DNA of 64,000 bases. Origin: a virus. Below the pieces are notes generated by a model. That model ran no database searches, was not told the DNA's origin, and was given only the letters and a program-made list of their open reading frames with translations. Below, one piece after another: positions 5,840-55,703 of the stretch. The first letter of the stretch is position 1, and each line of letters opens with the position of its first letter. The stretch is from the IMG/VR virus record IMGVR_UViG_3300000303_000010. One strand, 5' to 3'. A program made the translations under genes and the position numbers.

Positions 5840-6220
5840 ATGAAGTATCAAGTAACTACAGGTCCAAATGCTTACAGCTTTTATGACCAGTCAACCGGTA
5901 TTAATATCATCCGAGGAGAAGTAAAAGAACTTACAGGAGCTCAATATCGTACAAAAAGAATACAGATGGCCCTTAATTCAGGTCATCTTGTAATGGTTCA
6001 AGAAGGAGCAAAAGTAAATAAGTATGATGATAAGGCAGTTGAGAAGCTTTATAAAAAGATGAAGAAGCAGCAATCTAACGGTATGGAAATATCTAAGATA
6101 GCAAAAGCTTATTCACTTGAGGAAGCTAAATTAGTTGCCAAATCAAAAGGTGTAGAATACGATGAGAAGGACACCGTTCAGTCTATACTTGAAGTTCTTT
6201 TGTCTGATACCGAGGAATAA
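5840..6220 (+). CDS. Hypothetical virion-associated protein with small helical (HeH/Rho-N-like) C-terminus
   Basis: 126 aa; C-terminus SLEEAKLVAKSKGVEYDEKDTVQSILEVL. Position is typical of post-capsid small proteins. Confidence 0.5.
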   Translation: MKYQVTTGPNAYSFYDQSTGINIIRGEVKELTGAQYRTKRIQMALNSGHLVMVQEGAKVNKYDDKAVEKLYKKMKKQQSNGMEISKIAKAYSLEEAKLVAKSKGVEYDEKDTVQSILEVLLSDTEE

Positions 6221-6233
6221 AAAATAACCTATT

Positions 6234-7118
6234 ATGAATCTGGACTTTGCATATACAACACAAGGTCTAGAGGTTTCTTTTAGAGTCACTACCAAAGTCC
6301 CACCCAAATCCATTTATGAGTGGGACCTTGGTGATGATAAGGGGTACTTCTATAATAAGAAGGTGCCTACTTATACCTATGAAAAACCTGGCTTTTATTT
6401 GGTAACACTAACCGTTACTAACTCATCTCAAAAACTGAATGAGACCGTAACTAAACAAATTATTGTTACTGATAAGGTAAAAACACATTTATCCGATAGT
6501 ATTTATAATCTCATTGATAATTATATCCCATCAGATCTTTTTGAGAATGGTATGACTCATGAAGACAAGGAGATGTATATCAATAAATGGCAGCTGTATA
6601 TCCAGCCTCTAGTAAATCATTGTGTTCCTATTGAAGAATATAATAATGAGTTAGCCTATGAAGGACTAGAGAATCAATTGATAATGGAATTGGCAGCTTG
6701 GGATTTTTTAAATGTGAGGATAATGAATTTGTTGGTAACTGCCAATGAATATGTTTCAGGAGTGATATCCATTAAAAAGCCAGGTACTTCAGGAGGAGAA
6801 GAGGGAGAAGAAGTAGAATCAGAATCAGCTCGTGGAGATAGAATTAAATCTATCAAAACTGGCCCAACTGAAGTGGAGTATTATGATTCTCTATCAGAGT
6901 CTGGTAGTTCTCTTTTTACGGCATTTACCAATTCTCTTAAACCTGGAGGTATAATCGATGAATTGAGGCATAACTTATGTACATTGGCAAGTAGATTGGA
7001 TATATTCTTACCTTTCTGTGAGAATTACCAACCTATAATACCTCCAAAAGTAGGACATTTGAAGAGACCTGGACCATTTGATGTACCTAATCCTAGATCA
7101 GTATTAAGGAGGAGGTGA
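6234..7118 (+). CDS. PKD(Ig)-domain head-tail adaptor candidate
   Basis: N-terminal PKD signature (YEWDLGDD...TYTYEKPGFYLVTLTVTN). C-terminal part has IKSIKTGPTEVEY, resembling adaptor proteins. Confidence 0.6.
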   Translation: MNLDFAYTTQGLEVSFRVTTKVPPKSIYEWDLGDDKGYFYNKKVPTYTYEKPGFYLVTLTVTNSSQKLNETVTKQIIVTDKVKTHLSDSIYNLIDNYIPSDLFENGMTHEDKEMYINKWQLYIQPLVNHCVPIEEYNNELAYEGLENQLIMELAAWDFLNVRIMNLLVTANEYVSGVISIKKPGTSGGEEGEEVESESARGDRIKSIKTGPTEVEYYDSLSESGSSLFTAFTNSLKPGGIIDELRHNLCTLASRLDIFLPFCENYQPIIPPKVGHLKRPGPFDVPNPRSVLRRR

Positions 7119-7120
7119 TT

Positions 7121-7600
7121 ATGACTACGAAATACCCTTTTAGATTTGTAAGGAATAAATCCTGGGAAAGGTATAAATCTATTATCCGACAGTTTATGGA
7201 TGTAGATGCCGGACGCCAAACTATAACTTGGGCTAAACGGATAATGCAACCTATGACACATGGGGAGGATTATAACCCTGTATACCAGAATATTCAGATA
7301 GAAGCTCTTTGTTATTATAATTCATTCCGTAATTGGCCTATAAACAAGGAGACGGTAACGGGAGAATTAGATGATGAGAACCTATCTATTATGGTAACTG
7401 ATTCTTTCCTTCAATCTATAGGACATCTTAACTCTCATGGATACTGGGATTTTAATTGGTCCGAGGATAGGTTCATTATCAATGGTATTATTTACAAGCC
7501 TTCTGGTGATACCCAAGTAGCTCAAGCAAAGGACCAAGCTTTAGTATTCCTGGTAATCCTTAAAAGGGATAAAGATGTACTGAGCTTAAACTTTATTTAA
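7121..7600 (+). CDS. Head closure / neck protein candidate
   Basis: ATG at 7121 (the track starts at GTG 7115). Beta-rich 159 aa with DRFIINGIIYKP; synteny after the adaptor. Confidence 0.55.
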   Translation: MTTKYPFRFVRNKSWERYKSIIRQFMDVDAGRQTITWAKRIMQPMTHGEDYNPVYQNIQIEALCYYNSFRNWPINKETVTGELDDENLSIMVTDSFLQSIGHLNSHGYWDFNWSEDRFIINGIIYKPSGDTQVAQAKDQALVFLVILKRDKDVLSLNFI

Positions 7601-7610
7601 ACTTAAAACT

Positions 7611-8036
7611 ATGGCTAATTCCACAACATTACAGTTGCGATTTACCGAAATTATCCTAGATGGGAAGATTTGGTATGATAGTAACTTAATCAAGTTGAAC
7701 TCCGGAGTTTTGGGTTTACATATCGAAATGGATGATGAAGATGAGAGTCATTATATGGCTGTTCATCATAGTTTATCGGGTCAAAAGTTTACTTCTAAAT
7801 ACCACGATTATTTCGGTGTACTTTATGACAACTTGATTCCCGGGATTAAGGGAGTAGGGCAAATCTTAAAAGTTAGAATTGATAAGTTGCCTACTTATGC
7901 CGTAGTAATGGGTAATGTAGAGGATGCTGGTGATATAGATCCGGATAATCCTGACGATATACCCAATGCTTTTGCTACTCAAGATTTGGAGTATTTCAGG
8001 AGTGGTAGTAGTGAAATTTTCTGTTTTGGAACTTAA
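7611..8036 (+). CDS. Hypothetical structural protein
   Basis: 141 aa ORF with AT-rich leader in the virion operon. Confidence 0.55.
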   Translation: MANSTTLQLRFTEIILDGKIWYDSNLIKLNSGVLGLHIEMDDEDESHYMAVHHSLSGQKFTSKYHDYFGVLYDNLIPGIKGVGQILKVRIDKLPTYAVVMGNVEDAGDIDPDNPDDIPNAFATQDLEYFRSGSSEIFCFGT

Positions 8037-38758: not shown

Positions 38759-41488
38759 ATGGGAAAGATTTTAATTAGAAACTGTAATCAATGTGAGTTG
38801 GATATACCTTTAAAGTATGCCAACCAATTGTATAAGGATTTACAAATTCGACATCCCCAAGCATTTTACCTTACTACTCGTATGAGGAATTTAAGAAACT
38901 GGGATGGATATGTGAAATTTATTACTGCTCGAGGACAATTTAAAATAGGATTACTTCCTCGAGTTTGTAATTTATTAAGGGATTATGGATATGAGGATTT
39001 TGAGGTAATTGATTTTCGAAAACCCGTACCTATCATTGCAAAACCTATTACTCAGATTGGGGATTTTAAATTGAGACCGGAACAGATTAAGGCAGTTAAT
39101 GCAGTTCTCCATTCTAAGGTAGAAGGTATACCTTATCATATTGGGGTGATTGACTACACGGTTAATGCAGGTAAATGTACTGGTAAAGGTACTTTAATAC
39201 ATACCGAAGATGGTTTATTACCCATTGAACAAATTGTTTCGGAGGAGGGTAAAATAATATATAAGGGTAAGGTTCTTACGAAAGAAGGTGAATTAGTAAA
39301 ACCCAAAGCGGGGGTATTTAATAATATTAGGGTGGTTAAAATAACCACTACTCAAGGTTATAATCTCATATGTGGTTATGATAATCATAAGCTGTATACT
39401 TATTATAAAGGTAAATTGCAATGGATTTATGCTCGAGATTTAAAGAAGGGTGATTATTTACCTATATCCTTAGAATATTCAAGATCCGAAAATAAGATCG
39501 GTAAGGACTTATGTTATGTATTAGGAGCTTTATCAGGAGATGGGCATATACATAGAGTTTCAGATAATCAGATAGTTATATCTATTTCTGGACAAGATAT
39601 AGAAGTAGCTGAAATGGTAAAATCCGTTTTAGATAATATATGTAAAACTCCCGTAAAGATAAAACCCCATAGAGGATTCGATGGTTTTCATATATCAAAA
39701 TCTGATACTAACTTTACTCATATTCTACAATCTGAATATCCAGAGTTAATAAACTTAGCCCATAGTAAATATGTACCAGATAAAATCCTCAGATCTTCTT
39801 ATGAAGATATGAGGAATTATATAGCGGGATTATTTGATACAGATGGTCATAATTCATCATCACATGGTAGAAGATCTTTATCATTTAGTACGGTAAATTA
39901 TGAGAATGCTAAACGAGTACAACAAATGTTATTATCTCTGGGTATAGCTTCTTGTTTAAGACCTAAGAAAACTTTATTTAAAGGCAAGAGAGGTATTACT
40001 TATAGATTAACTATTCATAGTGAATACTATGATGAGTTTTTAGAGATTATACCTTTGAGAATTAAGAGAAAGTGTATACCTAGTAATCCTAAACGTAATA
40101 ATTACAGCAACAAACTTCCCTTTGGGGATCTAGCTAAATTCTTATATAATATTCTTTCTTGGAAAGAGAGGGGAGAATTTAAAGAATTATATGGTGATAC
40201 TATAAGGAATCAGATTACTCATAAAGGTAGAATAACTTTAACAGCTTTTATATATTTAATTGAATTTTTAGAATCTAAAGGTTTTAAGGATCCAAAAGCT
40301 AATCAATTACTAAGTTTATCCCAATATTGTTACTGGGATAAGATAGATAAGGTAGAAATAATAGATGAATATCCTTGTTATGATATGGAGATACCTAAAT
40401 ATCATAATTATATATCTAATGGATTTATATCTCATAACACCCTGATCATGTCAGCTCTTTACTTATCCTTCCAGAGAAAATTAAAGACTTTACTTATAAC
40501 CAATGATGCAGATTGGTTAAATCAAGCTAAGAAGGAGTTCAAGGATTATCTCCCTGATGAGGAAATTACTTTTATACAGGGATCTAAGGTAAATCATTGG
40601 GCTAATTTTTCGATTGGTATGGTACAATCCATTTCCAGGAATGTTAAGACTTATCAATCGGAAATGGCAACTGTAGATATGGTACTAGTGGATGAAGCAG
40701 ATTTAGCTGGTAGTAAACAATATCAAACTGTTTTAACTCACTTGTATAATACCCGAGTAAGACTGGGATTATCAGGAACAATTTATATGAGTAACCTTGC
40801 TAAGGATAGGCTTAAGAATATGAATCTCGAATCCTTCTTTGGTCCTACCCTGGCAAAATTCACCTTAAAACAATCCATTAAAAAGGGATATTCTACTGAT
40901 ACCGTAGTAAAAATAATACCCACCAAATCCTATTATGGTAATTATGAATCTCCCTATAATACTTACCAAGAGATTTATAATGACATGATCACTAACAATC
41001 CTCATGCTTGGAAAATAGTATTAGATAGAATATTATTCAATTTAAAGTATGGCAGGATTCCAATGCTCGTAGTATGCAAAATAATAAATCATGCAGAAAA
41101 TCTTTATAGAGTATTTGCTAATGATTCTAGATTAAAAGGATTACGATTAGCTTGTGTTCATGTAGATACTCCAACTAAACAGAGAAATAAAATCTTATCC
41201 GATTTTAGAGAAGGTAATATTGATATCCTAATATCCACTACCATTATTGCTCGAGGTAAAAACTTCCCTAAATTGAGATGTATGATTAATGCTGCCTCAA
41301 TGGATTCCCAGGAAAAATCGATCCAATTCCTTGGTCGATTAGTTCGAACTTGTGAAGGGAAAAATAAAGTTTACCTTGATGATATTCACTATCCTGGAGA
41401 TTATTTGGATAGACATGGGAAACATAGGAAACGGTATTATTTACAGCAAAATCTAAAGGTTATTGATCTATCCAAGTTTCATAGGTAA
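38759..41488 (+). CDS. SF2 DNA helicase (UvsW-like), intein-containing
   Basis: LRPEQ; split Walker A NAGK|T; VDEAD; GLSGT; ISTTIIARGKNFP; QFLGRLVR. Confidence 0.9.
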   Translation: MGKILIRNCNQCELDIPLKYANQLYKDLQIRHPQAFYLTTRMRNLRNWDGYVKFITARGQFKIGLLPRVCNLLRDYGYEDFEVIDFRKPVPIIAKPITQIGDFKLRPEQIKAVNAVLHSKVEGIPYHIGVIDYTVNAGKCTGKGTLIHTEDGLLPIEQIVSEEGKIIYKGKVLTKEGELVKPKAGVFNNIRVVKITTTQGYNLICGYDNHKLYTYYKGKLQWIYARDLKKGDYLPISLEYSRSENKIGKDLCYVLGALSGDGHIHRVSDNQIVISISGQDIEVAEMVKSVLDNICKTPVKIKPHRGFDGFHISKSDTNFTHILQSEYPELINLAHSKYVPDKILRSSYEDMRNYIAGLFDTDGHNSSSHGRRSLSFSTVNYENAKRVQQMLLSLGIASCLRPKKTLFKGKRGITYRLTIHSEYYDEFLEIIPLRIKRKCIPSNPKRNNYSNKLPFGDLAKFLYNILSWKERGEFKELYGDTIRNQITHKGRITLTAFIYLIEFLESKGFKDPKANQLLSLSQYCYWDKIDKVEIIDEYPCYDMEIPKYHNYISNGFISHNTLIMSALYLSFQRKLKTLLITNDADWLNQAKKEFKDYLPDEEITFIQGSKVNHWANFSIGMVQSISRNVKTYQSEMATVDMVLVDEADLAGSKQYQTVLTHLYNTRVRLGLSGTIYMSNLAKDRLKNMNLESFFGPTLAKFTLKQSIKKGYSTDTVVKIIPTKSYYGNYESPYNTYQEIYNDMITNNPHAWKIVLDRILFNLKYGRIPMLVVCKIINHAENLYRVFANDSRLKGLRLACVHVDTPTKQRNKILSDFREGNIDILISTTIIARGKNFPKLRCMINAASMDSQEKSIQFLGRLVRTCEGKNKVYLDDIHYPGDYLDRHGKHRKRYYLQQNLKVIDLSKFHR
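39176..40438 (+). mobile_element. LAGLIDADG intein in helicase Walker A (421 aa)
   Basis: Starts CTGKGTLIHTEDG after GK and ends GFISHN before T. LAGLIDADG motifs VLGALSGDG and IAGLFDTDG. Confidence 0.92.
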
Positions 41489-41648
41489 TAATACCTTCCA
41501 ACTATGATTTTCCAAAGTACTATGTATGTGTGCAATATCATTCCGAGGGAACTGAGGAATGATATTAGGCCTACTACTAAAGAAAATCCCAGAAAAGGAT
41601 TCCACTAAAAATCAATAAACATAAGTATAACATAAAACTTTAAACACA

Positions 41649-41996
41649 ATGATTAACGTATTTGTATTCAATCTCAAACATTTTAGAGAAGGTATAATAT
41701 CTTCTAATGAGGATGGCATTACCCTTAAATTATCCTTCATTGATGAGAATAATCCTCTTTATGAGTATGTATTTATTAAAGATACTTATTCTGAGAAGTA
41801 TTTAAATATGATTTGTTCTTTACTGGGTGATATTTATCAGGAAATGAAAACTGGAGGTTCTAATTATAGATTGAATTTTAATCCGTATAATTCTCGACTA
41901 TGTGGTTCAGAAGGGTATATTTTCGATAGAGTGATTATTAGTAGGAAAGAGAGGAATTCTTCACAAATGACATGTACAGAATATAAGTTATCATGA
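41649..41996 (+). CDS. Hypothetical protein
   Basis: 115 aa ORF with AT-rich leader. Confidence 0.6.
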   Translation: MINVFVFNLKHFREGIISSNEDGITLKLSFIDENNPLYEYVFIKDTYSEKYLNMICSLLGDIYQEMKTGGSNYRLNFNPYNSRLCGSEGYIFDRVIISRKERNSSQMTCTEYKLS

Positions 41997-42292
41997 TAAT
42001 CAATAAGAATAACATATTGCATATCCAGGAGCCTGAGCATAATGATCAATTGGTATGGATCGATATTTATATGGTATCAGGTATACTCAGACTGGGATTT
42101 ACCTATAATAAGCCGATTGAGAAGTTAGTAATGGCGAAAGCTAATGACTTCTATCAGGAATTGGATAAGGAAATGGGAGACAGTCATAATTTCTTTACAG
42201 TGGATAACCTACTGGTAGAATTTATAAAGTTCATCAATTTTCATCAGGTAGAAGACTTTGTAATCAAATCCTCTGCTAAGAATAGCAAATAG
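41993..42292 (+). CDS. Hypothetical protein
   Basis: 99 aa; ATGA overlap with the upstream gene. Confidence 0.6.
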   Translation: MIINKNNILHIQEPEHNDQLVWIDIYMVSGILRLGFTYNKPIEKLVMAKANDFYQELDKEMGDSHNFFTVDNLLVEFIKFINFHQVEDFVIKSSAKNSK

Positions 42293-42358
42293 GACCTATT
42301 ATTAAATGCTTCTAACAATCTTAAAGTCGTAATATTAACTAATTAAAACTCAAAAACA

Positions 42359-42706
42359 ATGGCAGAAGAACATGTATTAAATCCTGAAATACAGGATGCA
42401 GACAAGGAACAGAAACCCGTAGAAAAGAAGGAAGATCAGATACAAATTAATCTGGCTACTTCTTTGATAATCACTCCAATGATTAAGTTCATAGGAGAAA
42501 TTAAACCGGAAGTTCAGGGAGCTAATCCCCTATTTAGTTTGGTAGTGGTAACCGATGCAATCAAACTCAAGTTCACCGGTAAGATGCAAGCAATAAGAGG
42601 ATTGAAAGCTGGTCTTCTTAATGCTCTTACTCAAAACCAGATATACATTGCAAATGTATCGGAATCACTGGTAGAAGAAGGAGATCTGATGTATGAAGTC
42701 CTCTAA
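42359..42706 (+). CDS. Hypothetical protein
   Basis: 115 aa with AT-rich leader. Confidence 0.6.
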   Translation: MAEEHVLNPEIQDADKEQKPVEKKEDQIQINLATSLIITPMIKFIGEIKPEVQGANPLFSLVVVTDAIKLKFTGKMQAIRGLKAGLLNALTQNQIYIANVSESLVEEGDLMYEVL

Positions 42707-43100
42707 AAAGAAGAAACTACCTGATCTAACAAAGCAAGACCCTTTGACTCCAATTAATCTGGAGTCATTGGGTTCTAATGGAGATCCTTGCTTTGGTAAA
42801 TCCTATGATCTCTCAACTAAGGAATGTAAGTTATGCGGAGATTCCGAATTATGTGCATTGAAAATGTCTCAGAATCTAAGAATTACTCGCAAAGAACTAG
42901 AAGATAAGAATCATTATAAAGATTTAGATACTCTTCTGGATATTCAAGCGGTAAAGAAATATATTCGTTCGTTGAAGAGAAAGGGAATGACAAGAAGGGA
43001 AATTGTAAATAAGTGTTCAACTAAGTACGAAGCTCCCACTAAGGATATTCGTAAGATATACCGAGAACTATATGGAAAACAAAGTGATAATGGAAAATGA
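42693..43100 (+). CDS. Hypothetical Cys-containing basic protein
   Basis: C-x11-CxxC-x5-C cluster (CFGKSYDLSTKECKLCGDSELC) and a basic helical C-terminus. Confidence 0.55.
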   Translation: MKSSKKKKLPDLTKQDPLTPINLESLGSNGDPCFGKSYDLSTKECKLCGDSELCALKMSQNLRITRKELEDKNHYKDLDTLLDIQAVKKYIRSLKRKGMTRREIVNKCSTKYEAPTKDIRKIYRELYGKQSDNGK

Positions 43101-43737
43101 TTGGAATACTGATCCTATAAACAGAGTATGGGATAATGATCCCATAAACAGAGTATCAATATCCTTTACTAAGGTAAGAGAAGTCAAGGATCCCAGCACA
43201 TCTTATGATTCGGCTGGTCTTGATTTTTATATGCCCAATAATCTCAAGGAGGAGGACTTTACCAATTACAACAGTGTAAAGTTCGAATTAAACCTTTTCA
43301 ACGAAGTAGAGAAAATAATATTAGCACCTCACGGAAGAGTATTGATCCCATCAGGTATAAAAGTTAAGATCCCTAAAATGTTTGCATTGATTGCTCATAA
43401 TAAGTCTGGAGTATCCTCTAAGAAAGGATTGATATTCTCTGCCCAAGTAGTAGATGCGGATTATACTGGAGAGGTACATTTGGGGATAATTAATACTGGA
43501 AATGAGGAAACTTCTATTCAGGCAGGTACTAAGGTATTGCAATTCTTATTGGTACCAGTATTCCATGTAACTCTTAATGCAATCTCTAATGAGCAATATG
43601 CTACATTCAAGTCTTCTCGAGGTTCTAAGGGATTTGGTAGTAGTGATAAAATATCCACTATGGTTACCGGAGATTTTCCCAATAATCCAAATCCTCTTGG
43701 TATAATGTATGATGCAAGTAAAAGTGATCCAGATTAA
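43072..43737 (+). CDS. dut: Trimeric dUTPase
   Basis: All five motifs: SAGLDF, NKSGVS, VVDADYTGE, LQFLL and RGSKGFGSS. Confidence 0.92.
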   Translation: MENKVIMENDWNTDPINRVWDNDPINRVSISFTKVREVKDPSTSYDSAGLDFYMPNNLKEEDFTNYNSVKFELNLFNEVEKIILAPHGRVLIPSGIKVKIPKMFALIAHNKSGVSSKKGLIFSAQVVDADYTGEVHLGIINTGNEETSIQAGTKVLQFLLVPVFHVTLNAISNEQYATFKSSRGSKGFGSSDKISTMVTGDFPNNPNPLGIMYDASKSDPD

Positions 43738-43748
43738 TTTCATATATT

Positions 43749-44582
43749 ATGGATATACGTAATATTAAAGAGGAAGTCCCAAAGGTAGAGAATAGCCAAT
43801 ACTTGGAACAAATGTTTCAATTCGGTAGAGAACAACTAGTGGCTTATATAAATGATGGTCCTGAGGATCTTCCTGAAGAATTCCCCCTCAATGTAAATAT
43901 TCCTCGTAATCAAGTAGTTCTTAAAGACTTCATTAATAGGGTAATGGAAGAACTAATGGAAGGGTATGAATCTACTCAATTAGCTTTTAATATTATTTAC
44001 AATAAGGGTTGGAATGAAGAATTGCTTCATGAGGAGGAAGTAGAAGAACTTAATAACCATTTGCAAAATGCCTGTGAGGAACAAGCTGATGCTATGGGAT
44101 TTTTTATGACTCTTTTCCTGTATGCTAATATAGGGCCTGAAGATATTTATGAGTACGGTAATACTTGTATGAACTACCCTAATAAAATTGACAATTTATC
44201 TAAGGTGATGACTGCTGGTAGAGTACTCCATGATTTTGATGAGGATGAAAGGAGTTTATTTTACTTACCCATATTAGAAAAGAATGAAGATTATATACCT
44301 GGATTCTATACTATGAATGTTCCTTCTCATCTAATAACCGAAAAAGAAGGTATATTTAATGTCATGTATTATTTGAATATGGCAAGAAATTCTCTTAAGT
44401 GCAGACCTTGGAAAAATACTCAAGTAATGACTAAGGAAATAGAATTTCAGGAATGCTTGGTAAAGGCCTTTTATATGTATATGGGTTTCCTTTGTGAATT
44501 TAAGTTTACTCCAAGAAAACTATGTACTGAATATTTCAAAAAGTTTAAGCTTAACATGTGGCGACTTGCGTCAGCATATTAA
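43749..44582 (+). CDS. All-alpha NTP pyrophosphatase (T4 gp56 dCTPase / dimeric dUTPase-like)
   Basis: EELMEGYE and EEQAD acidic motifs, KCRPWK, and C-terminal YFKKFKLNMWRLASAY (family pattern Y..KN..N..RQ..GY). Confidence 0.75.
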   Translation: MDIRNIKEEVPKVENSQYLEQMFQFGREQLVAYINDGPEDLPEEFPLNVNIPRNQVVLKDFINRVMEELMEGYESTQLAFNIIYNKGWNEELLHEEEVEELNNHLQNACEEQADAMGFFMTLFLYANIGPEDIYEYGNTCMNYPNKIDNLSKVMTAGRVLHDFDEDERSLFYLPILEKNEDYIPGFYTMNVPSHLITEKEGIFNVMYYLNMARNSLKCRPWKNTQVMTKEIEFQECLVKAFYMYMGFLCEFKFTPRKLCTEYFKKFKLNMWRLASAY

Positions 44583-44592
44583 TTATTAATTT

Positions 44593-45525
44593 ATGGGAGG
44601 TTGGAATAAACCCTTAGAAGGATTAGAGAACATGGATGTTTCAGAGAACATCCATTCTCTTGAGTTTGCTACTTCACAGGAGGCATGGGAGAGATTGAAC
44701 GAGTATTTCCTTCAGATGAATCCCATTCTCTTTAACAAAGGAGCACTTGCAAATAGCGGATTGGCCGTATGCTATAACGTTTTTATTCGCATAAGAAAAG
44801 CATGGGTTGATCCAGAGTTTGATTATGGAAGACACTTTAATTATACTTCGTCTAAATGGAGTGTTCTTCTAAATAACTATATCGACTTTAATAAGTTGGA
44901 TTTGATGAGATCTCGAATAAGAACTCTAAAGAACAGTTACAATCAGAATTACAATGTTACCTATATATTCAACAATAAGCATGATAATGGTAAACAATGT
45001 CTGATTGCTGCAACTTTTTCAAAGAGATTTCAGGAAGATATACCCGTAATAACGATGGTATTAAGGGCATCAGAGATAACTAAAAGGTTAATGTTCGATT
45101 TTCTTCTCGTACAAAGGATGGCAGAATATGTATATGGTCCCAATCAATCCGTACAATTAAATCTGTTCGCTACACAGATGTATGGAAATACCGAGACTTT
45201 AATTATGTATGATGCTCATAAACCAGTTTCTAAGGTAATTAAGAAATACGATAATCCCTGGGTGGATAATGTAAAGAAGGTATACAAAAAATTCAAGGAG
45301 GGTACAGAGAAGGATTTTTATTCTTTTAAGGTATACTTTAGGAGTTTTAAGGTTGTACGTCCCGATCTTTATCAATATAAACCTTTGCTTGCTAAAAACC
45401 TGGTTATAGAGGATGATCCTATAGAGTATCCAGAAAATTGCATATCCTATTCACAAAGGAAAAAGTTCCGTACTAAATACTTAAGAAAACAGAAGAAAAA
45501 TGAAAAAGTGGATAGTACTGATTGA
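44593..45525 (+). CDS. Divergent thymidylate-synthase-fold protein
   Basis: KQCLIAATF (QC in place of PC; Cys at 44998) and LRASEITKRLMFDF (aligns with RSxD...N/D; Asp at 45097). N-terminal FATSQEAWERL resembles TS starts. Confidence 0.65.
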   Translation: MGGWNKPLEGLENMDVSENIHSLEFATSQEAWERLNEYFLQMNPILFNKGALANSGLAVCYNVFIRIRKAWVDPEFDYGRHFNYTSSKWSVLLNNYIDFNKLDLMRSRIRTLKNSYNQNYNVTYIFNNKHDNGKQCLIAATFSKRFQEDIPVITMVLRASEITKRLMFDFLLVQRMAEYVYGPNQSVQLNLFATQMYGNTETLIMYDAHKPVSKVIKKYDNPWVDNVKKVYKKFKEGTEKDFYSFKVYFRSFKVVRPDLYQYKPLLAKNLVIEDDPIEYPENCISYSQRKKFRTKYLRKQKKNEKVDSTD

Positions 45526-45658
45526 TAATTATGAAACTTTTATCACTGATGATGAGACAGAAGCATACAAGATGTATAACTACTTTCGCGATATGAAGTT
45601 ACCTGTTGCTTTATATGAATGTAAACAATTTTCCAATTTTCATACTAAACAAAAATGA
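45500..45658 (+). CDS. 52-aa ORF not in the ORF track
   Basis: MKKWIVLIDNYETFITDDETEAYKMYNYFRDMKLPVALYECKQFSNFHTKQK. Overlaps the upstream gene and ends in an ATGA overlap with 45655. Confidence 0.55.
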   Translation: MKKWIVLIDNYETFITDDETEAYKMYNYFRDMKLPVALYECKQFSNFHTKQK

Positions 45659-46455
45659 GGATATATCAAAATTCATTCGAACTAATGTCCGAAATGGGCA
45701 GAGAGTTAAATTCCTATGGTACAATAGTAAAACCTAAGCATTACCAAAATAAGGATATTGAAGGTAATGAGGATTTTATTACTAAGGAGATAATATGCCA
45801 ACAGTATTGCCTAACTAATTTGGGTGATCCCATATGGTTGTTTGTATTTACTCATGCGAAGGAATGGGCAGATGCTGAGTTTAAGGAGAGGATTTCCGTT
45901 AAAAAGATAAATCCTGGAGAAGCTTGGGAACTTAGAGAGGATCTTTGGAAAGAATTTCTAACTGATAGAGGTAGTGATCGAGAAGTATTTGATTATACCT
46001 ATAATGAGAGAATGTCCAACTTGGTATATTATGAGTCCCCATCAGTAATACAAGATAATCGTCAATGGGATACCCATCTAAATCATATAATTGACCTCTT
46101 AAGGGATGACCCTGATACTCGTAAAGCAGTATTAAGTATATACGATACTACTATTGATGCTTATCATTTATGGGGAGATAGAAGAATTCCTTGCTCAATG
46201 TATTATGATTTTCTTATAAGGGAAAACCCAAAAGGAGAAAAACAATTGAACATATGCTACCATCAAAGGTCCTGCGATTATGCAACCTTCTTTGGTAGTG
46301 ATGTATACCTTGCATGGAGATTGATGGAATATGTTGCAGAGAAAGTGGGAGTTAAACCCGGTTATCTATTCCATACCATTGACTCTTTACATGTATATAA
46401 GAAGGATTGGCATGTTCTCTCAATGAATTTGGAGGACCTACAAGACAATTATTGA
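45655..46455 (+). CDS. Thymidylate-synthase-family enzyme with dCMP-type specificity residue (putative dCMP hydroxymethylase / methylase)
   Basis: DPDTRKAV, catalytic IPC (Cys at 46192), HQRSCDYATFFGSD with Asp (46300) where dUMP-specific ThyA has Asn, and DSLHVY. Confidence 0.8.
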   Translation: MRIYQNSFELMSEMGRELNSYGTIVKPKHYQNKDIEGNEDFITKEIICQQYCLTNLGDPIWLFVFTHAKEWADAEFKERISVKKINPGEAWELREDLWKEFLTDRGSDREVFDYTYNERMSNLVYYESPSVIQDNRQWDTHLNHIIDLLRDDPDTRKAVLSIYDTTIDAYHLWGDRRIPCSMYYDFLIRENPKGEKQLNICYHQRSCDYATFFGSDVYLAWRLMEYVAEKVGVKPGYLFHTIDSLHVYKKDWHVLSMNLEDLQDNY

Positions 46456-46456
46456 T

Positions 46457-48727
46457 ATGGAAACTAAATATCACATAATAAAAAACTTACAGGAACTGGA
46501 CACTTTAATCCAGTCCTGTAAGTATACAGGGTATTGCTGCTATGATTTTGAGTCAAATGCACAACCCTTGTATAACCATGATTTTAGAGCAACCATATTA
46601 TCCATATCATTTCAGCCTGGATTTGGTTGCTCTATTCCGTTACAACATCCTGAAACTCCAAAGAATTTCCCTTGGAAAAAGGCATTACTTAAAATAGGTC
46701 ATGAGCTTATTGAGGATTATGATGTAATCAAAGTAGGATGGAATATAAAATTCGATAACCAGATATGGGAGAAGTTCGGTATATATTATAGAGGTACTGC
46801 CATAGATGGAATGCTTGCTAAATATATCCTAAATGAGGAACGTCCCAATGATCTAAAATCTATGGTAAGGAGATACTTACCTGAGTATGGCAATTACGAG
46901 AAACAGGATGCCTTTGATAAAATACCTTGGGATAAAAAGGAACTGGAACCTCTTTGCAAATATGGATGCCAAGATACTGATTATACCTTGAGATTAACCT
47001 TATTCTTTGAAAAGAAACTAATAGACTTGGGATTGTATGATTTGTATCGTAATCTTATAATGACTGCATCCCGAGTACTTACTTCAGCGGAGAGACGTGG
47101 ATTATATTTAGATCGAAAATTCAACCAACAATTATTGGAAGAGTATAAACCTAAAATAGAACAAGCCAAGAGCAATGTATATAATCTTCCAAGAGTAAAA
47201 AGATTTACTAAAGAATATAATCAACAGAAAGTAGATGCTTATATTTCTAGCATTGAAAAAGAATTAGAGGATTTGGATCCCAATGATCCTAAGGATGCTC
47301 GTAAAATAAAATCCCGGGAGGAGAAAATTGCAAGGATTAAGGCAGGAGAATTTACTACTAAAAAGGAACAGGAACTTATAAGACCTATAAACTTGGGTAG
47401 TTCTGTAGATTTACCTGCAATTATGTTCGGTGAAAGTGGATTTAACTTTAAACCCATAAAAATGACTGATAAGGGCAAACCTTCAACAGATGAGGAATCC
47501 TTAACTGAAATGAGATTAAAGGTAAAAAATCCTGAATCACCTAAAGCAATATTCCTGGATAATCTTTTGGAATTAAGGGCATTACAAAAGATGTATACTA
47601 CCTATATTGAGGGGTGGCATGATAAAGTACAGGATGATAATTGTTTACATGGTAAATTTAATCTAATAGGAACTACGAGTGGAAGATTATCTTCATCTGA
47701 GCCAAATATGCAACAAGTACCCAAAACTTCCGTGGATCCAAATATTAAAAAGCAACTAATAGCTAAACCTGGAACTTTATATTTAGTAATGGATTTTAGC
47801 CAAGCTGAATTGAGAATTATGGCTTACTTATCAGGAGATGAAACTTACCTTCATGCTTTTGCAAATGGTCAGGATCCTCACTTAGCTATTGCAGCTAAAA
47901 AATATGGAGTTCCTTATGAAGAAGCTTTTAAGGTTTATTCCGATGAAAATCATCCTGATTATAAGCTTTGGAAAACTAGAAGAAAGCAAGCTAAACAAAT
48001 TGCGTTCGGAATTATATATGGAATTCAGGCAAAACTTTTATCCCAAAAATTATCCGATCCTAAGGCAGGATTGATAGTTACTCCATCCGAAGCACAGCAA
48101 CAATTGGATGAATTCTTTGAGGAACATCCCGCTATTAAGAAATTCATGAAACATCAAGCTAAAATTCTACATAGAGATGGGTATGTTAAATCTCTGTTTG
48201 GAAGGAAGAGAAGATTACCTCAGGTATATTCCGAAGATATGGGGGAAGTTGCTTATGCTGAAAGATTATCTGTAAATTTCCCCTGTCAATCTGCAGCATC
48301 AGATATGAATTTGTTTGGTAGTATATTACTGTATTGGGAAATGATACAGGGTAAATTTCCAATGATGGAATTGAATTGTTTAGTTCATGATGCTTCTTAC
48401 TTTTATGTAGATCCAAAATATATAAATACTTGGGTAATATATAAGATGTGGGATATATTTAGGAATCCTAAAACTAAACCCTATTTTGGATTCCAAATAG
48501 ATACCGTAGATATGTCTATGGATTTTTCTATTGGAAGAACCATGGCAGAAGAATTGCCCTTTATTCCTGGTTATGACTACAACAAAATGCTTCAACCAGA
48601 TTTTTCAGTAGAAGAATACATGGAGGAGTACAAAAAGTTTAAACATATCCCCATAAAGGATTATAAAAAGTTATTTGGAAAGGAGATGGATAAATATGAA
48701 CAACAATTCAGAAAACGAAAACTATAG
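46457..48727 (+). CDS. polA: Family A DNA polymerase with 3'-5' exonuclease
   Basis: Exo motifs YDFES, WNIKFD and YGCQDT. Pol motifs TTSGRLSSSEPNMQQVP, DFSQAELRI, RKQAKQIAFGIIYG and VHDA. Confidence 0.95.
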   Translation: METKYHIIKNLQELDTLIQSCKYTGYCCYDFESNAQPLYNHDFRATILSISFQPGFGCSIPLQHPETPKNFPWKKALLKIGHELIEDYDVIKVGWNIKFDNQIWEKFGIYYRGTAIDGMLAKYILNEERPNDLKSMVRRYLPEYGNYEKQDAFDKIPWDKKELEPLCKYGCQDTDYTLRLTLFFEKKLIDLGLYDLYRNLIMTASRVLTSAERRGLYLDRKFNQQLLEEYKPKIEQAKSNVYNLPRVKRFTKEYNQQKVDAYISSIEKELEDLDPNDPKDARKIKSREEKIARIKAGEFTTKKEQELIRPINLGSSVDLPAIMFGESGFNFKPIKMTDKGKPSTDEESLTEMRLKVKNPESPKAIFLDNLLELRALQKMYTTYIEGWHDKVQDDNCLHGKFNLIGTTSGRLSSSEPNMQQVPKTSVDPNIKKQLIAKPGTLYLVMDFSQAELRIMAYLSGDETYLHAFANGQDPHLAIAAKKYGVPYEEAFKVYSDENHPDYKLWKTRRKQAKQIAFGIIYGIQAKLLSQKLSDPKAGLIVTPSEAQQQLDEFFEEHPAIKKFMKHQAKILHRDGYVKSLFGRKRRLPQVYSEDMGEVAYAERLSVNFPCQSAASDMNLFGSILLYWEMIQGKFPMMELNCLVHDASYFYVDPKYINTWVIYKMWDIFRNPKTKPYFGFQIDTVDMSMDFSIGRTMAEELPFIPGYDYNKMLQPDFSVEEYMEEYKKFKHIPIKDYKKLFGKEMDKYEQQFRKRKL

Positions 48728-48902
48728 ATTTATCGTATTTGTTGAAAGTCATGATGTTGGATATTATTCTTCAATGTACGATAGTAAACCTCACAATAGA
48801 ATAGATGATATAGTTGCTATAGTTAAGTCCGAAGATACTGCTAAGGATATGTGTAAAGATCGTAAAGAATTAAGTTATACTAGAGTAAAATGGGAGGATT
48901 AA
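48696..48902 (+). CDS. Small hypothetical protein
   Basis: Likely start at ATG 48696 (MNNNSENENYRF...) rather than 48675. Confidence 0.5.
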   Translation: MNNNSENENYRFIVFVESHDVGYYSSMYDSKPHNRIDDIVAIVKSEDTAKDMCKDRKELSYTRVKWED

Positions 48903-48905
48903 ATT

Positions 48906-49463
48906 ATGGATCGTCAAAGGCAATTATTACTTAGCCAACTTAAAGAAAACAAATATTACAAGGAGGCTAACTGGAGATTACACTTAGTTTATATTCTTTC
49001 AGGTGTACTCCAAAAGAATTATGAATACCTTGATAATGCTTTAAAGATGATGGGAGTAAAACTTAATCCCAATGATAAATGGCATATAACCGAAATACTG
49101 AAGGCATCAAAAAGATCCATTTATCATGCCGAGCAATTATATAAGGAAATACCCAATGAAAATGATGGAGAGAATGCTAGTTATATCCATGAAAATTGGG
49201 TAGATATATTCTATGCGTTATTCTTAAAAATGCTAGAAATATCAGGGGATGAGGATACTTATGCTAAAGTAAGGATGTATGAAATATATAATTACTTAGA
49301 TAGATTTAAAAGGCATATAGAAGCTCCTGAAATGAGTACACAGGAACAATATGCTTTTGGTAAGTTAAAAGAACTTATAAAAGAAGGAAATATACAGTAT
49401 GATAAAGAAAAACTGTTCAGGCCTAAATTCAGTGCCCTTGACACCTTTAAAGGTAAAGATTGA
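48906..49463 (+). CDS. Hypothetical helical protein
   Basis: 185 aa ORF in the operon. Confidence 0.55.
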   Translation: MDRQRQLLLSQLKENKYYKEANWRLHLVYILSGVLQKNYEYLDNALKMMGVKLNPNDKWHITEILKASKRSIYHAEQLYKEIPNENDGENASYIHENWVDIFYALFLKMLEISGDEDTYAKVRMYEIYNYLDRFKRHIEAPEMSTQEQYAFGKLKELIKEGNIQYDKEKLFRPKFSALDTFKGKD

Positions 49464-51141: not shown

Positions 51142-53337
51142 ATGGCTAAGAACAAATTGAAAATCCCCACAAAGAATGAACTTCTAAAGAAGTATGGGGA
51201 TATTATTAAAGTAGCCTCTAATAAGGAGGATACAGGTTTATGGTTACCTTCTACATTCTTTGCCCTTAATTATCAGATGGGTGGAGGTATACCTTTTGGG
51301 AAAATCCTTGAGATAGCTGGTGAGGAGAGTTCAGGAAAATCCCTAATAGCTTATAACTTTGCCTATGCTTGTCAACAACTGGGTGGACATGTTATATGGG
51401 TAGATGCCGAACAATCCTGGATGAACTCATGGGCAGAAGAGAATGGAGTTGATCCTGAAAAGGTAACTGTAATAAATGAAACTCGAATAGAATATATTGC
51501 AGATGCCGTAGCAGATTTAGCATTATATCTAAGAGCACAATTAACTAATAATGAACCAATATTACTGGTATTGGATTCGATTGCTGCTACTGATTGCTCG
51601 GATAATATAGATGCAAAGATGACCGATGCAAAAGCTGAAATGGGAGGTAGAGCAAAGGCATTGTATAAATATTTCCGAATTAGGAACGAATTGTTTTTCA
51701 GATTAGGTATAACCCAGATATATATTAACCAATTAAGAACTGCCTTAAATGTCGGATTTGGAAAAGATAATACCTGCCTACATTATGATACTGTAATACC
51801 TTTTGTAGATGGTACTTCTATGAAAATAGGGGAAATAGTTAAGAATAAGGTATCTAAAGAGGTATGGAGTTATAATGAGGTTACACATAAATTCGAACCT
51901 AAACCCATTGTGGATTGGATAAGGAAATCCGAAACTAAAAAATGGATCCAATTTAAGACTGAGGGTCCAGAAACTACTAATGGTTTTAATGGGTTTACTT
52001 GTACTTATACTCATCATTGTTTAACTAATCATGGATGGAAAAAAGCCATAGATATTACTTTTGAGGATAAGCTTATTACCAAACAAAGGGGAGTAATAAA
52101 TGGTACTCTTAAAGATTTTCTTTGGGGTACTATACCTTTTGATTGTTCACTTTATAGTAAACATGGTAAGGGTATTACTCGTATAACTTTTAGTAATGGT
52201 ATACAGGAAGAGTATTTACTTTGGAAAACTCACATGATAGAAAAGGCATTTCCTATGGTGAATAAGGGAGAATCTAAGTATATCTCTAAAAGGGGTTATG
52301 CTGAGTTATATGATATTCAACAACAAATAGGTAAAGAAAGAGACCCTCTAAAATTATGGGATACGGATCGCGATTTATCAGATCTTACTTTAGCTATTTG
52401 GTACATGGATGATGGTCATAAGTATAATTCAGTAACTGTAGGTATTGCTATATCTCCTAAACGTACGGATTTAAATAAATTGGCCCAGTACCTCACTGAT
52501 AAATGTGGTTTACCCTGTAAAACTTATGAATACGGTATAAAGTTTACCAACAAGGGCACAATTAAGTTGATGGAAAGGATAAATAGATATGTTATACCTT
52601 CTATGCAATATAAACTCTTAGATGCCTATAAAGGTAACTTTAAAGAGTTTGAGTTAGAGTATCAAGAAGAATATATACCAAAAGAGGTAAATATCCTATC
52701 CATAAACAAAGAATTCGATATTAAGAATAGAAGATTCAGAAGACCCTATAAGAGATTTAAATATGACATCACAATCCCAGGAAACCACAATTTCCTCGCA
52801 GGATCAACCGAACAAGGTATCCTCGTTCATAACACAACTACGGGAGGTGCAGCACTTAAATTCTATGCTTCTATCAGACTTGCTTTCTATTCAGGCAAAA
52901 CAGTTACAATTAAAAGCAAAGGTAAAGAACGTAAGGTTGGAAAACTTGTCACCATCAGATTACTTAAGAATAAAGTTGCTCCTCCAAGACCTACAATATC
53001 AAAATGTCCTGTGTATTTCAACCCTAAATTCCATGATGTTGGATTTGATAGATACTATGGATTAGAAGATGTATTAGTAGAAAATGATATTGTAGAAAAA
53101 TCCTCAGGAGGAGTTTATAAATACAAGGGTAGTACATTATGCCGTGGTGAAGAGAAATTCCAAAAGCTAATGGAAGAAGATGATTCTCTCAGACGCAAAT
53201 TACTTAGGAAAGCAAATATAAATACGATTGGAACTACTAAAAAGAGGATCCAAGAGTTAAATAAAAATTACTTCCCAGTAGAGGGAGTAGAATACGAATC
53301 TTATAATACGGAGGGAGAAGAAAATGAAGATGAATAA
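51142..53337 (+). CDS. recA: RecA/UvsX recombinase, intein-containing
   Basis: GGGIPFGKILEIAGEESSGKS, WVDAE, LVLDSIAA, INQLR, TTTGGAALKFYAS and KNKVAPP. Confidence 0.95.
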   Translation: MAKNKLKIPTKNELLKKYGDIIKVASNKEDTGLWLPSTFFALNYQMGGGIPFGKILEIAGEESSGKSLIAYNFAYACQQLGGHVIWVDAEQSWMNSWAEENGVDPEKVTVINETRIEYIADAVADLALYLRAQLTNNEPILLVLDSIAATDCSDNIDAKMTDAKAEMGGRAKALYKYFRIRNELFFRLGITQIYINQLRTALNVGFGKDNTCLHYDTVIPFVDGTSMKIGEIVKNKVSKEVWSYNEVTHKFEPKPIVDWIRKSETKKWIQFKTEGPETTNGFNGFTCTYTHHCLTNHGWKKAIDITFEDKLITKQRGVINGTLKDFLWGTIPFDCSLYSKHGKGITRITFSNGIQEEYLLWKTHMIEKAFPMVNKGESKYISKRGYAELYDIQQQIGKERDPLKLWDTDRDLSDLTLAIWYMDDGHKYNSVTVGIAISPKRTDLNKLAQYLTDKCGLPCKTYEYGIKFTNKGTIKLMERINRYVIPSMQYKLLDAYKGNFKEFELEYQEEYIPKEVNILSINKEFDIKNRRFRRPYKRFKYDITIPGNHNFLAGSTEQGILVHNTTTGGAALKFYASIRLAFYSGKTVTIKSKGKERKVGKLVTIRLLKNKVAPPRPTISKCPVYFNPKFHDVGFDRYYGLEDVLVENDIVEKSSGGVYKYKGSTLCRGEEKFQKLMEEDDSLRRKLLRKANINTIGTTKKRIQELNKNYFPVEGVEYESYNTEGEENEDE
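51775..52833 (+). mobile_element. Intein in RecA loop L2 region (353 aa)
   Basis: Starts CLHYDTVIPFVDG and ends GILVHN before T. LAGLIDADG-type motif LAIWYMDDG; the first motif is degenerate (LWGTIPFDCSL). Confidence 0.92.
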
Positions 53338-54915: not shown

Positions 54916-55015
54916 GGATTATAAAAAGTACAAAAAGGAATTTGGGGTAGATCCCCGAGAAGTATATCATAGAGATATGGAGATTTTAACTTCTAATAGT
55001 TATGATTATGAGTAA
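54908..55015 (+). CDS. 35-aa micro-ORF not in the ORF track
   Basis: MNEDYKKYKKEFGVDPREVYHRDMEILTSNSYDYE; overlaps both flanking genes. Confidence 0.5.
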   Translation: MNEDYKKYKKEFGVDPREVYHRDMEILTSNSYDYE

Positions 55016-55703
55016 AATAATGTTTGCAGGTGCAAGTGGTACTGGAAAATCCACCCTTGCAGAATGGATTGCTAACGGAGCTGAATTATTTAGCTCCAAT
55101 AGTATGCCCTTTGTATCAGGTAGTGTATCTGATTTGCTCCCTAAGACAAAAGATATGCCTCATAAGGATATGCTTGCAAGAGATCCTATGGAATTATACC
55201 ATGAGGATATGCAAATACTAAATCTTAGGCATAAAAAGTTCAAAGAGTATGAAAATTTTGTATCTGATAGATCTTATCTTGATAGTGCTGCTTATTTTCT
55301 ATATAAACAAGCCGACAAACAACCCGAATGCGAAGTAGAACATTTCATGGAATTAAGTAAGATGCTCCTTAATCAGGAATGTACTCACTTAATATTCATC
55401 CGATTCCATACTGGTTTATATAAAGAATGGGTAACCGAGGATAATGGGAAACGAATAGTTAGCTCATTCTTTCAAATGGAAATAAGTGCTATCATGGAGA
55501 TGATACTTAAATTATGGGGATTCACTCCAGAGGATCATATAAGGTCATTAAAAGATTCCTGGTTAAAAGCTCCTAAGACTTTGGATTATCCCTGTCCAGT
55601 AGGTAGTATAAAATCCTTATATGGGGAAACTAAAGTATTGGTATTGGATGAGCCTAATTTGGATTTACGTAAATCAGTAATTGAACTATTCTTAAAAGTA
55701 TGA
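55008..55703 (+). CDS. Deoxynucleoside monophosphate kinase-like P-loop protein
   Basis: FAGASGTGKST Walker A at the N-terminus; SDRSYLD (NMP-kinase DR motif). Confidence 0.7.
   Translation: MSKIMFAGASGTGKSTLAEWIANGAELFSSNSMPFVSGSVSDLLPKTKDMPHKDMLARDPMELYHEDMQILNLRHKKFKEYENFVSDRSYLDSAAYFLYKQADKQPECEVEHFMELSKMLLNQECTHLIFIRFHTGLYKEWVTEDNGKRIVSSFFQMEISAIMEMILKLWGFTPEDHIRSLKDSWLKAPKTLDYPCPVGSIKSLYGETKVLVLDEPNLDLRKSVIELFLKV

Follow-up and report, generated by a model that had tools for sequence, protein, structure and literature searches.

A replication-linked phage gene cluster with two thymidylate synthase-fold proteins and a probable role in making a C5-modified deoxycytidine nucleotide

The IMG/VR virus record IMGVR_UViG_3300000303_000010 carries, among its replication genes, a cluster encoding two proteins that we call TS1 and TS2, both assigned to the thymidylate synthase (TS) fold in a preliminary description made from the sequence. 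We analyzed a 64,000-nucleotide stretch of this record (the window), and all positions refer to it unless another contig is named. The part from 1 to 34 kb holds structural genes of a phage with a contractile tail (tail tube gp19, baseplate J, gp25, and base-V spike). The region from 35 to 64 kb is a replication module with a DnaB-like helicase, a primase, an intein-containing helicase, PolA, a gp32-like single-stranded DNA-binding protein, an intein-containing RecA, a 5'-3' exonuclease, and SbcCD. Within this module, genes for a dUTPase, a pyrophosphatase (P0001), TS1, TS2, and PolA follow one another on the + strand between 43072 and 48727 with intergenic gaps of 1–130 bp. Every gene named in this run by the preliminary description is present at its coordinates and on the + strand, and a kinase gene lies approximately 6 kb downstream. 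The features are as follows.

42693..43100, + strand: cysteine-rich open reading frame (ORF) of 135 aa directly upstream of the module; matches PHROG families of unknown function only.
43072..43737, + strand: trimeric-type dUTPase of 221 aa (PF00692, 2.4e-15; phrog_135, 7.9e-28; NF001862, 3.6e-23).
43749..44582, + strand: all-alpha NTP pyrophosphatase P0001 of 277 aa (phrog_12184, "nucleotide pyrophosphohydrolase", 3.3e-13).
44593..45525, + strand: TS1 (P0002), a very divergent TS-fold protein of 310 aa, recognized by its AlphaFold model and structure matches.
45500..45658, + strand: micro-ORF of 52 aa across the TS1–TS2 gap; found in only 3 of 80 loci and probably not a gene.
45655..46455, + strand: TS2 (P0003), a TS-family enzyme of 266 aa (PF00303, 5.9e-16).
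46457..48727, + strand: PolA, a family A DNA polymerase with 3'-5' exonuclease (PF00476, 4.4e-69; PF01612, 3e-18), beginning 1 bp after TS2.
55002..55703, + strand: P-loop kinase of 233 aa (PF13521 AAA_28, 2.6e-7; phrog_2107, "thymidylate kinase", 1.7e-8).

We found no terminator-like site on the + strand from 43072 to 48504, and sigma-70-like promoters and terminators in 41400–49200 were no commoner than chance. The block from 43072 to 48727 is probably co-transcribed. The Bacteroidota-type promoter pattern gave 3 matches versus 2.15 expected, and the Bacteroidota host assumed at first is thus not borne out by the promoter pattern.

TS2 matches the TS family with a PF00303 score of 58.9 bits against a cut-off of 24.3, and its best sequence matches in the PDB were to the dCMP hydroxylase AfhB of HY126 (9iqu/9iqc, 1.5e-8) and to MilA (4e-6). 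We aligned TS2 and its relatives with E. coli ThyA, T4 gp42, and RB69 gp48 taken from annotated records. In this alignment TS2 has W80, Y94, R126, K127, R143, C146, S147, R166, S167, D169, D177, H207, and Y209. The catalytic Cys146 is kept with Tyr94, Arg166, Ser167, Arg126, His207, and Tyr209, and Asp occupies the position of Asn177, as the preliminary description had read. An Asn177Asp change switches TS to dCMP specificity (PMC8670742, PMC13326640). Canonical ThyA is characterized by Asn177, Leu143, His147, and a lid of approximately 55 residues, whereas TS2 has Asp177, Arg143, Ser147, and 18 residues after Tyr209. As a comparison, this tail is 55 residues long in ThyA, 28 in gp42, and 12 in gp48. 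TS2 resembles gp42 in having Asp177 and in lacking the C-terminal tail. These residues predict that TS2 uses a folate cofactor and works at C5 of dCMP.

TS1 had no sequence match in Pfam, NCBIfam, or the PDB, and none of 72 members of its family matched PF00303 at E 0.1. It belongs to phrog_34294, a separate unnamed family of unknown function, and a HMMER search against 1.8 billion representatives returned 134 TS1-related clusters at 50% identity. The 72 relatives, with a mean column identity of 23%, formed the alignment for an AlphaFold model and for residue conservation. Foldseek comparison of the resulting model (pLDDT 93.8, pTM 0.90) with the PDB gave MilA, T4 dCMP hydroxymethylase (dCH), and HY126 AfhB as top matches. 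The seven best VIA-align matches were all from the TS superfamily (9iqc with Z 13.3, MilA with Z 11.0, and five ThyA/dCH entries with Z 9.5–8.7), and the next, unrelated, structure had Z 4.4. Matches to AFDB clusters were likewise to TS, dCH, MilA, and AfhB. Among the 100 nearest Atlas clusters by language model, 87 were in the set with PF00303 as the listed Pfam, which a minority of their members carry, and hhalign of TS1 against the TS alignment gave E 8e-5 with a probability of 61%. Judged by its model, TS1 has the TS fold, and calling it a TS-fold gene was correct.

A profile–profile alignment maps residues of TS1 onto TS as follows: Cys136 to Cys146, Arg158 to Arg166, Glu161 to Asp169, Asp169 to Asn177, and Tyr206 to Tyr209. 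Both TS-fold proteins therefore combine the catalytic Cys with an Asp where ThyA has Asn177, in TS2 by alignment and in TS1 by profile alignment. Because Cys136, Arg158, and Asp169 are invariant across the 72 diverse members, with the Glu and Tyr near-invariant, TS1 appears to be catalytically equipped. This conservation indicates that TS1 is also an enzyme attacking C6 of a cytosine nucleotide and not a decayed copy. TS1 has a basic C-terminal extension, no fusion partners were found among longer homologs, and its distant members are mostly on contigs of approximately 1.4 kb. Two database labels for members of this family may be mentioned. The gene in Clostridium phage CPAS-15 (MN417334.1, 13271–13999) is labelled "colanic acid biosynthesis glycosyltransferase" and looks mis-annotated, and the homolog in Yersinia phage P744 is labelled "pyrimidine hmase synthase".

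To describe the distribution of the pair we used a related set of 80 IMG/VR loci with TS1 at 69–98% identity. Wherever the locus extends, the order is (cysteine-rich ORF), dUTPase, pyrophosphatase, TS1, TS2, PolA, and such a fixed order in 80 related contigs is therefore not due to chance. PolA follows TS2 in every related lineage examined. The human-gut phage record MT121964, with TS2 at 60% identity, has two tandem TS1 paralogs (6030–6866 and 6964–7749) before TS2, making three TS-fold genes in a row. Ten cultured Clostridium perfringens phages (P21 and nine relatives) have the pyrophosphatase, TS1, and TS2 in this order, and metagenome contig L005 has TS1, a dCMP deaminase, TS2, and PolA. 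A TS1-family gene also lies immediately upstream of a TS2 homolog in Yersinia phage vB_YenM_P744, Serratia phage Tlacuache, and Gordonia phage Emalyn, with hidden Markov model scores of 49, 51, and 19 bits and hhalign probabilities of 96, 96, and 92%, respectively. In P744 and Emalyn, kinase and NTP-pyrophosphatase genes are upstream of the pair and a deaminase and PolA are downstream; in Tlacuache the surrounding genes are annotated as hypothetical only. The TS2 homologs of these cultured phages all have Arg143, Asp169, Asp177, Ser or Thr at 147, and a tail of 8–18 residues. Near homologs of TS2 number more than 1,400 and lie in contigs of approximately 85 kb. Because the pair is conserved across phages of very different hosts, these data argue that TS1 and the Arg143/Asp177 TS2 work together, and this is the strongest argument that we have for their cooperation. 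In a separate search, sequence close to 43072–48727 (one-quarter to one-third of sampled 31-mers) was found in chicken-gut, bird, and faeces metagenomes of nine studies, with human runs outside the search.

TS-family enzymes are obligate dimers whose active-site arginines are shared across the interface. TS1 might thus be no enzyme in its own right but assist TS2 in a regulatory or structural capacity, for instance within a heterodimer with one working active site, and the constant adjacency of the two genes and the weakly kept Arg126/Arg127 loop of TS1 would suit such a role. We consider this improbable. The invariant Cys, Arg, and Asp and near-invariant Glu and Tyr of TS1 point to catalysis, some relatives have two TS1 paralogs with TS2, and, having kept Arg126, TS2 can form a complete site as a homodimer.

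The genes flanking the pair are of the kind expected to handle nucleotides. P0001 itself has no Pfam match, and its family profile matched none of the solved structures. Homologs at 47–64% identity carry PF08761 (dUTPase_2, dimeric all-alpha), some of them named dUTPase by NCBI, and the ORF preceding TS1 in Clostridium phage P21 is a homolog of P0001 (E 2e-9). Its C-terminal motif aligns weakly with T4 gp56 (hhalign E 1.2e-3, probability 19%). These matches, with that to the PHROG pyrophosphohydrolase family, agree with the all-alpha pyrophosphatase proposed at the outset, and we regard P0001 as a candidate dCTPase of the dimeric dUTPase/T4 gp56 kind. In the trimeric-type dUTPase, motifs I–V are all readable after an N-terminal extension of approximately 40 aa, and dCTP deaminase models in NCBIfam match it far more weakly than NF001862. 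The kinase had no PDB or NCBIfam match and no similarity to RB69 p045. Its nearest Atlas clusters are phage AAA_28 kinases, some with Cytidylate_kin, dNK, or Thymidylate_kin domains. Of the dNMP kinase proposed earlier, the P-loop kinase is present at 55002–55703, and a role as a (d)NMP kinase for a modified nucleotide is plausible.

From these folds, residues, gene order, and co-occurrence we infer the substrates, the product, and the extent of its incorporation. We lean somewhat toward the view that 43072–48727 and the kinase at 55002 form a replication-linked module for producing a deoxycytidine nucleotide modified at C5 ahead of DNA synthesis. On viral contigs with modified cytosine, Asp177 TS homologs and PRA-PH/MazG-type pyrophosphatases are found enriched together (PMC8670742). 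In the proposed pathway, P0001 would hydrolyze dCTP to dCMP and the trimeric dUTPase would clear dUTP. TS2 would then bind dCMP, with Asp177 reading the cytosine, Arg166, Ser167, and Arg126 holding the phosphate, and His207 and Tyr209 holding the 3'-OH. Attack of its Cys on C6 would be followed by transfer of a one-carbon unit from methylene-tetrahydrofolate, for which Asp169 and Trp80 are kept, and water or some other nucleophile would then trap the exocyclic methylene intermediate. Since TS2 is without the C-terminal lid, formation of a methyl group by hydride transfer is unlikely, and the chemistry probably differs from that of T4 because an Arg that is invariant in the clade replaces the water-activating Asp145 of T4 dCH. 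TS1, always the upstream neighbour, would be a second TS-fold enzyme carrying out a further or parallel reaction on the cytosine nucleotide. The P-loop kinase and host NDP kinase would give the triphosphate, to be incorporated by the phage PolA.

Several observations weigh against this reading, and the first of these concern the product of TS2. Hydroxymethylases are marked by Asp or Glu at position 143 (Cys-3) and Ser or Thr two residues before Tyr94 (Tyr96 in T4 numbering), and the D145N mutant of T4 dCH is inactive (PMC6400193). TS2 lacks this signature, with Arg at Cys-3 and Tyr at Tyr-2. Arg is present at Cys-3 in the window TS2 and in all six other clade members examined, in which Tyr-2 is Tyr or His. 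Flavin-dependent 5-hydroxy-dCMP synthases are marked by D169N with Glu at 143 (PMC13326640); this mark is absent too, since TS2 has Asp169 with Arg143 and TS1 has Glu. In ThyA, Leu143 and the C-terminal lid seal the active site for hydride transfer (PMC6400193), and relative to E. coli ThyA, TS2 has neither feature of a methyl-forming TS. Because only the Asp177 rule holds among the published rules, the product of TS2 is not predictable from its sequence. A plain methyl product seems least likely since the site of TS2 is open. None of the products first suggested (5-methyl-, 5-hydroxymethyl-, or 5-hydroxycytosine or a derivative) is therefore indicated. The TS2 clade with Arg at the product-determining position is newly recognized.

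Other observations bear on how much cytosine could be replaced. Approximately 21 kb of the genome are outside the window, and we inferred their content from a complete relative of 85,266 bp (G002; IMGVR_UViG_3300045988_148323), with 77–96% DNA identity across the cluster. In this part G002 has a gene resembling a C5 DNA-cytosine methylase (L089:2418-3482, - strand, 354 aa, PF00145, 5e-14), in which motifs for SAM binding, the Cys, ENx, and QxRxR are readable. Five more complete relatives have an intact copy at 61–74% identity, so that all six, G002 included, carry the gene. At least 172 viral contigs also have it, as does MT121964, where the GenBank title names it. It is not in the window, and tblastn did not find it in the C. 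perfringens phages. With every C5 substituted, a C5 methylase would be left without a substrate, and a conserved gene of this kind is hard to reconcile with complete substitution. The catalytic motif of the G002 protein is P-D-C-G instead of the usual P-C-Q; the protein is divergent and had no PDB sequence match.

The window also avoids GATC, CATG, CCGG, GTAC, TGCA, and GGCC (observed/expected 0.60–0.80, z -3.4 to -5.8), and there is no avoidance of AT-only 4-bp palindromes. Short samples of T4 and RB69 showed CCGG, GGCC, and TGCA without avoidance. Since GATC, CATG, and GTAC are avoided by T-even phages as well, the avoidance of palindromes is weak evidence. Genome-wide replacement of cytosine, as proposed in the preliminary description, is thus doubtful given the intact methylase-like gene and the avoided C-containing palindromes, and the replacement may be partial rather than complete. 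Of the proposed modified-dCTP module, the cytosine-type TS pair, the gp56-kind pyrophosphatase, and the P-loop kinase are supported, and the named products and genome-wide extent are unsupported or weakened. A literature search on restriction resistance of C. perfringens or Yersinia phages found nothing usable. As separate observations on composition, CpG in the window has an observed/expected ratio of 0.49 without an excess of TpG or CpA, and the 64 kb contain a single GCGC and no ATGCAT, of which approximately 10 would be expected. The CpG ratio is 0.12 in the C. perfringens P21 locus and approximately 1.0 in the T4 and RB69 samples.

The deaminases in the related modules of L005, P744, and Emalyn, where a dCMP/cytidine deaminase is inside or beside the pair, also count against a modified cytosine in DNA, as they open a route to uracil or thymine derivatives. 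In that case the pair would modify dCMP at C5 and the product would be deaminated to dTMP or a 5-substituted dUMP, with canonical cytosine in the DNA protected at specific sites by the phage C5 methylase. The methylase-like gene and the palindrome avoidance would be consistent with such pool conversion, and so would the absence of an Asn177 ThyA from the window and the finding of ThyX above the family cut-off in only one of five complete relatives. Annotators of related Gordonia phages took these genes as thymine synthesis (PMC10353413). The deaminase could be a host enzyme, an unrecognized phage enzyme or, speculatively, TS1 itself, where Cys addition at C6 promotes hydrolytic deamination. 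However, no PF00383 deaminase was found in the complete G002 (85 kb), and the L005 deaminase has no homolog in the window. Because L005 contains a deaminase as well as TS1, TS1 does not simply replace a deaminase. TS2 is also without the lid needed for methyl formation. The one relative with a true ThyX (G005, the IMG/VR contig behind L066; 80930–81748) retains the TS1–TS2 pair, so that the pair is not simply the phage thymidylate synthase. Moreover, contigs with cytosines resistant to APOBEC/USER treatment were enriched in Asp177 TS together with deaminases (PMC8670742). We therefore think pool conversion unlikely, although it deserves to be kept in mind.

A last point against modified DNA is that we found no glycosyltransferase or other post-replicative modifier in the window and G002 ORFs scanned. 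Among 69 ORFs of the window, including all non-overlapping ORFs of at least 90 aa, Pfam identified no glycosyltransferase, carbamoyltransferase, deaminase, or methylase, and the lack of a classical glycosyltransferase in the window reported earlier holds for this set. The 18 largest ORFs in the remaining 21 kb of G002 contained none of these modifiers except the methylase. The lack of a modifier, with the signs of ordinary cytosine given by the methylase and the palindromes, would be in keeping with a modified nucleotide aimed at the host instead of phage DNA, draining or poisoning the dCTP pool or blocking a nucleotide-sensing defence. We judge this to be very improbable, as the pair is tightly and repeatedly linked to a replicative PolA and a kinase in five unrelated phage lineages. 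To our knowledge there is also no precedent for TS-fold enzymes in host manipulation.

Returning to a module that makes a C5-modified deoxycytidine nucleotide, a more specific and distinctly tentative proposal, which we think could be right but would not assume, is that the two enzymes act as one system with a chemistry new to the TS fold. TS2 would form 5-methylene-dCMP, and either a nucleophile other than water or hydride would be installed or TS1, by Cys addition at C6, would re-activate the nucleotide and exchange its C5 substituent. Phages of Bacteroidota-like gut hosts, Clostridium, Enterobacterales, and Actinobacteria would then carry an undescribed 5-substituted cytosine in their DNA.

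The cysteine-rich ORF at 42693–43100, whose translation shows a four-Cys cluster, is upstream of the module in 76 of the 80 related loci, in MT121964, and in L005, and it may be outside the pathway. The micro-ORF at 45500–45658, which had been counted as a member of the cluster, had a tblastn match in 3 of the 80 related loci, compared with 80 of 80 for TS1 and TS2, and had no family match in Pfam, PHROG, or NCBIfam. It is probably not a gene. We also considered it as a decayed deaminase and rejected this, as it has no similarity to a deaminase and no conservation. The close relative L011 (TS1 98% identical; DNA 77–96% identical across the locus) has an extra gene for a 276-aa protein between the dUTPase and pyrophosphatase genes (L011:3330-4160), with an N-terminal coiled coil and a weakly dUTPase-like C-terminal half; this gene is absent from the window. 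The PolA gene of L011 (L011:6871-10497) is interrupted by approximately 1.3 kb holding a 319-aa ORF with a DUF559 (endonuclease-like) domain, which looks like a mobile insertion in the polymerase gene, and the window is without this insert. Elsewhere in the replication module, the SF2 helicase (38759–41488) and the RecA-like recombinase (51142–53337) are each split by an intein with a LAGLIDADG homing endonuclease (Pfam Intein_splicing and LAGLIDADG).

Phages are known to use TS homologs to modify cytosine at the nucleotide level as a counter-defence, with 5-hydroxymethylcytosine, 5-methylcytosine and, since 2025–26, 5-hydroxycytosine as products. The kind of system considered here is thus already known from T4, Xp12, RB69, and the MetaGPA neighbourhoods, and its enzymes are an uncharacterized variant. 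They form a further branch, a TS clade with an invariant Arg and an obligate TS-fold neighbour that is unrecognized by Pfam and NCBIfam. The pair is abundant and also present in phages in culture, among them C. perfringens and Yersinia phages studied for biocontrol, which makes the question directly testable. If the carriers hold a novel base, sequencing, restriction mapping, engineering, and host-range prediction would be affected and the TS fold would gain a new reaction. The C5 methylase-like gene that relatives carry in addition to the TS pair raises the question of whether two cytosine-C5 systems in one genome are redundant, sequential, or mutually exclusive in time.

The pre-replicative T4 pathway to hydroxymethylcytosine, with gp56 as dCTPase/dUTPase, gp42 as dCMP hydroxymethylase, and gp1 as dNMP kinase, is similar in having an all-alpha pyrophosphatase, with whose C-terminal motif that of P0001 aligns, a lid-less Asp177 TS-family enzyme, a kinase, and modification genes placed among replication genes. 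It differs in that gp42 has the essential Asp145 and Ser94 where TS2 has Arg and Tyr, and in that T4 is without a second TS-fold enzyme such as TS1. This phage also has a separate trimeric dUTPase and an AAA_28-type kinase, with no glucosyltransferase found, and its relatives carry a C5 DNA methylase-like gene whereas T4 has only Dam.

The 5-hydroxy-dCMP synthases (RB69 gp48, DLP3 gp80, and HY126 AfhB; 9iqu/9iqc; PMC13326640) provide the best PDB match both of TS2 by sequence (1.5e-8) and of TS1 by structure (Z 13.3). Features in common are Asp177, Thr or Ser at 147, and a short C-terminus. They differ in D169N, where TS2 has Asp and TS1 has Glu, and in Glu at 143, where TS2 has Arg; in contrast to their phages, we found no arabinose or hexose pathway and no DNA glycosyltransferase here. 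The MetaGPA neighbourhoods (PMC8670742) combine an Asp177 TS with a PRA-PH/MazG pyrophosphatase, with or without a deaminase or a carbamoyltransferase. The present cluster resembles them in having an Asp177 TS with an all-alpha pyrophosphatase on phage contigs and a residue other than His at 147, as on the modified contigs. Unlike them, it was found to have no carbamoyltransferase or deaminase, and neither the Arg143 clade nor its Pfam-invisible TS1 partner was described by MetaGPA.

Xp12-type methylation to 5-methyl-dCMP likewise uses a dCMP-directed TS-family enzyme at the nucleotide level, and TS2 has the Asp177 for it. However, compared through the features of E. coli ThyA and not the Xp12 sequence, TS2 is without the hydrophobic residue 143 and the lid that seal the site for hydride transfer. 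The CMP hydroxymethylase MilA (5b6d/5jnh) is the second-best match both of TS2 by sequence and of TS1 by fold, and it shares Asp177. It has Asp at 143 and a ribonucleotide substrate and serves antibiotic synthesis, whereas TS2 keeps His207 and Tyr209, the 3'-OH binders of dUMP and dCMP enzymes.

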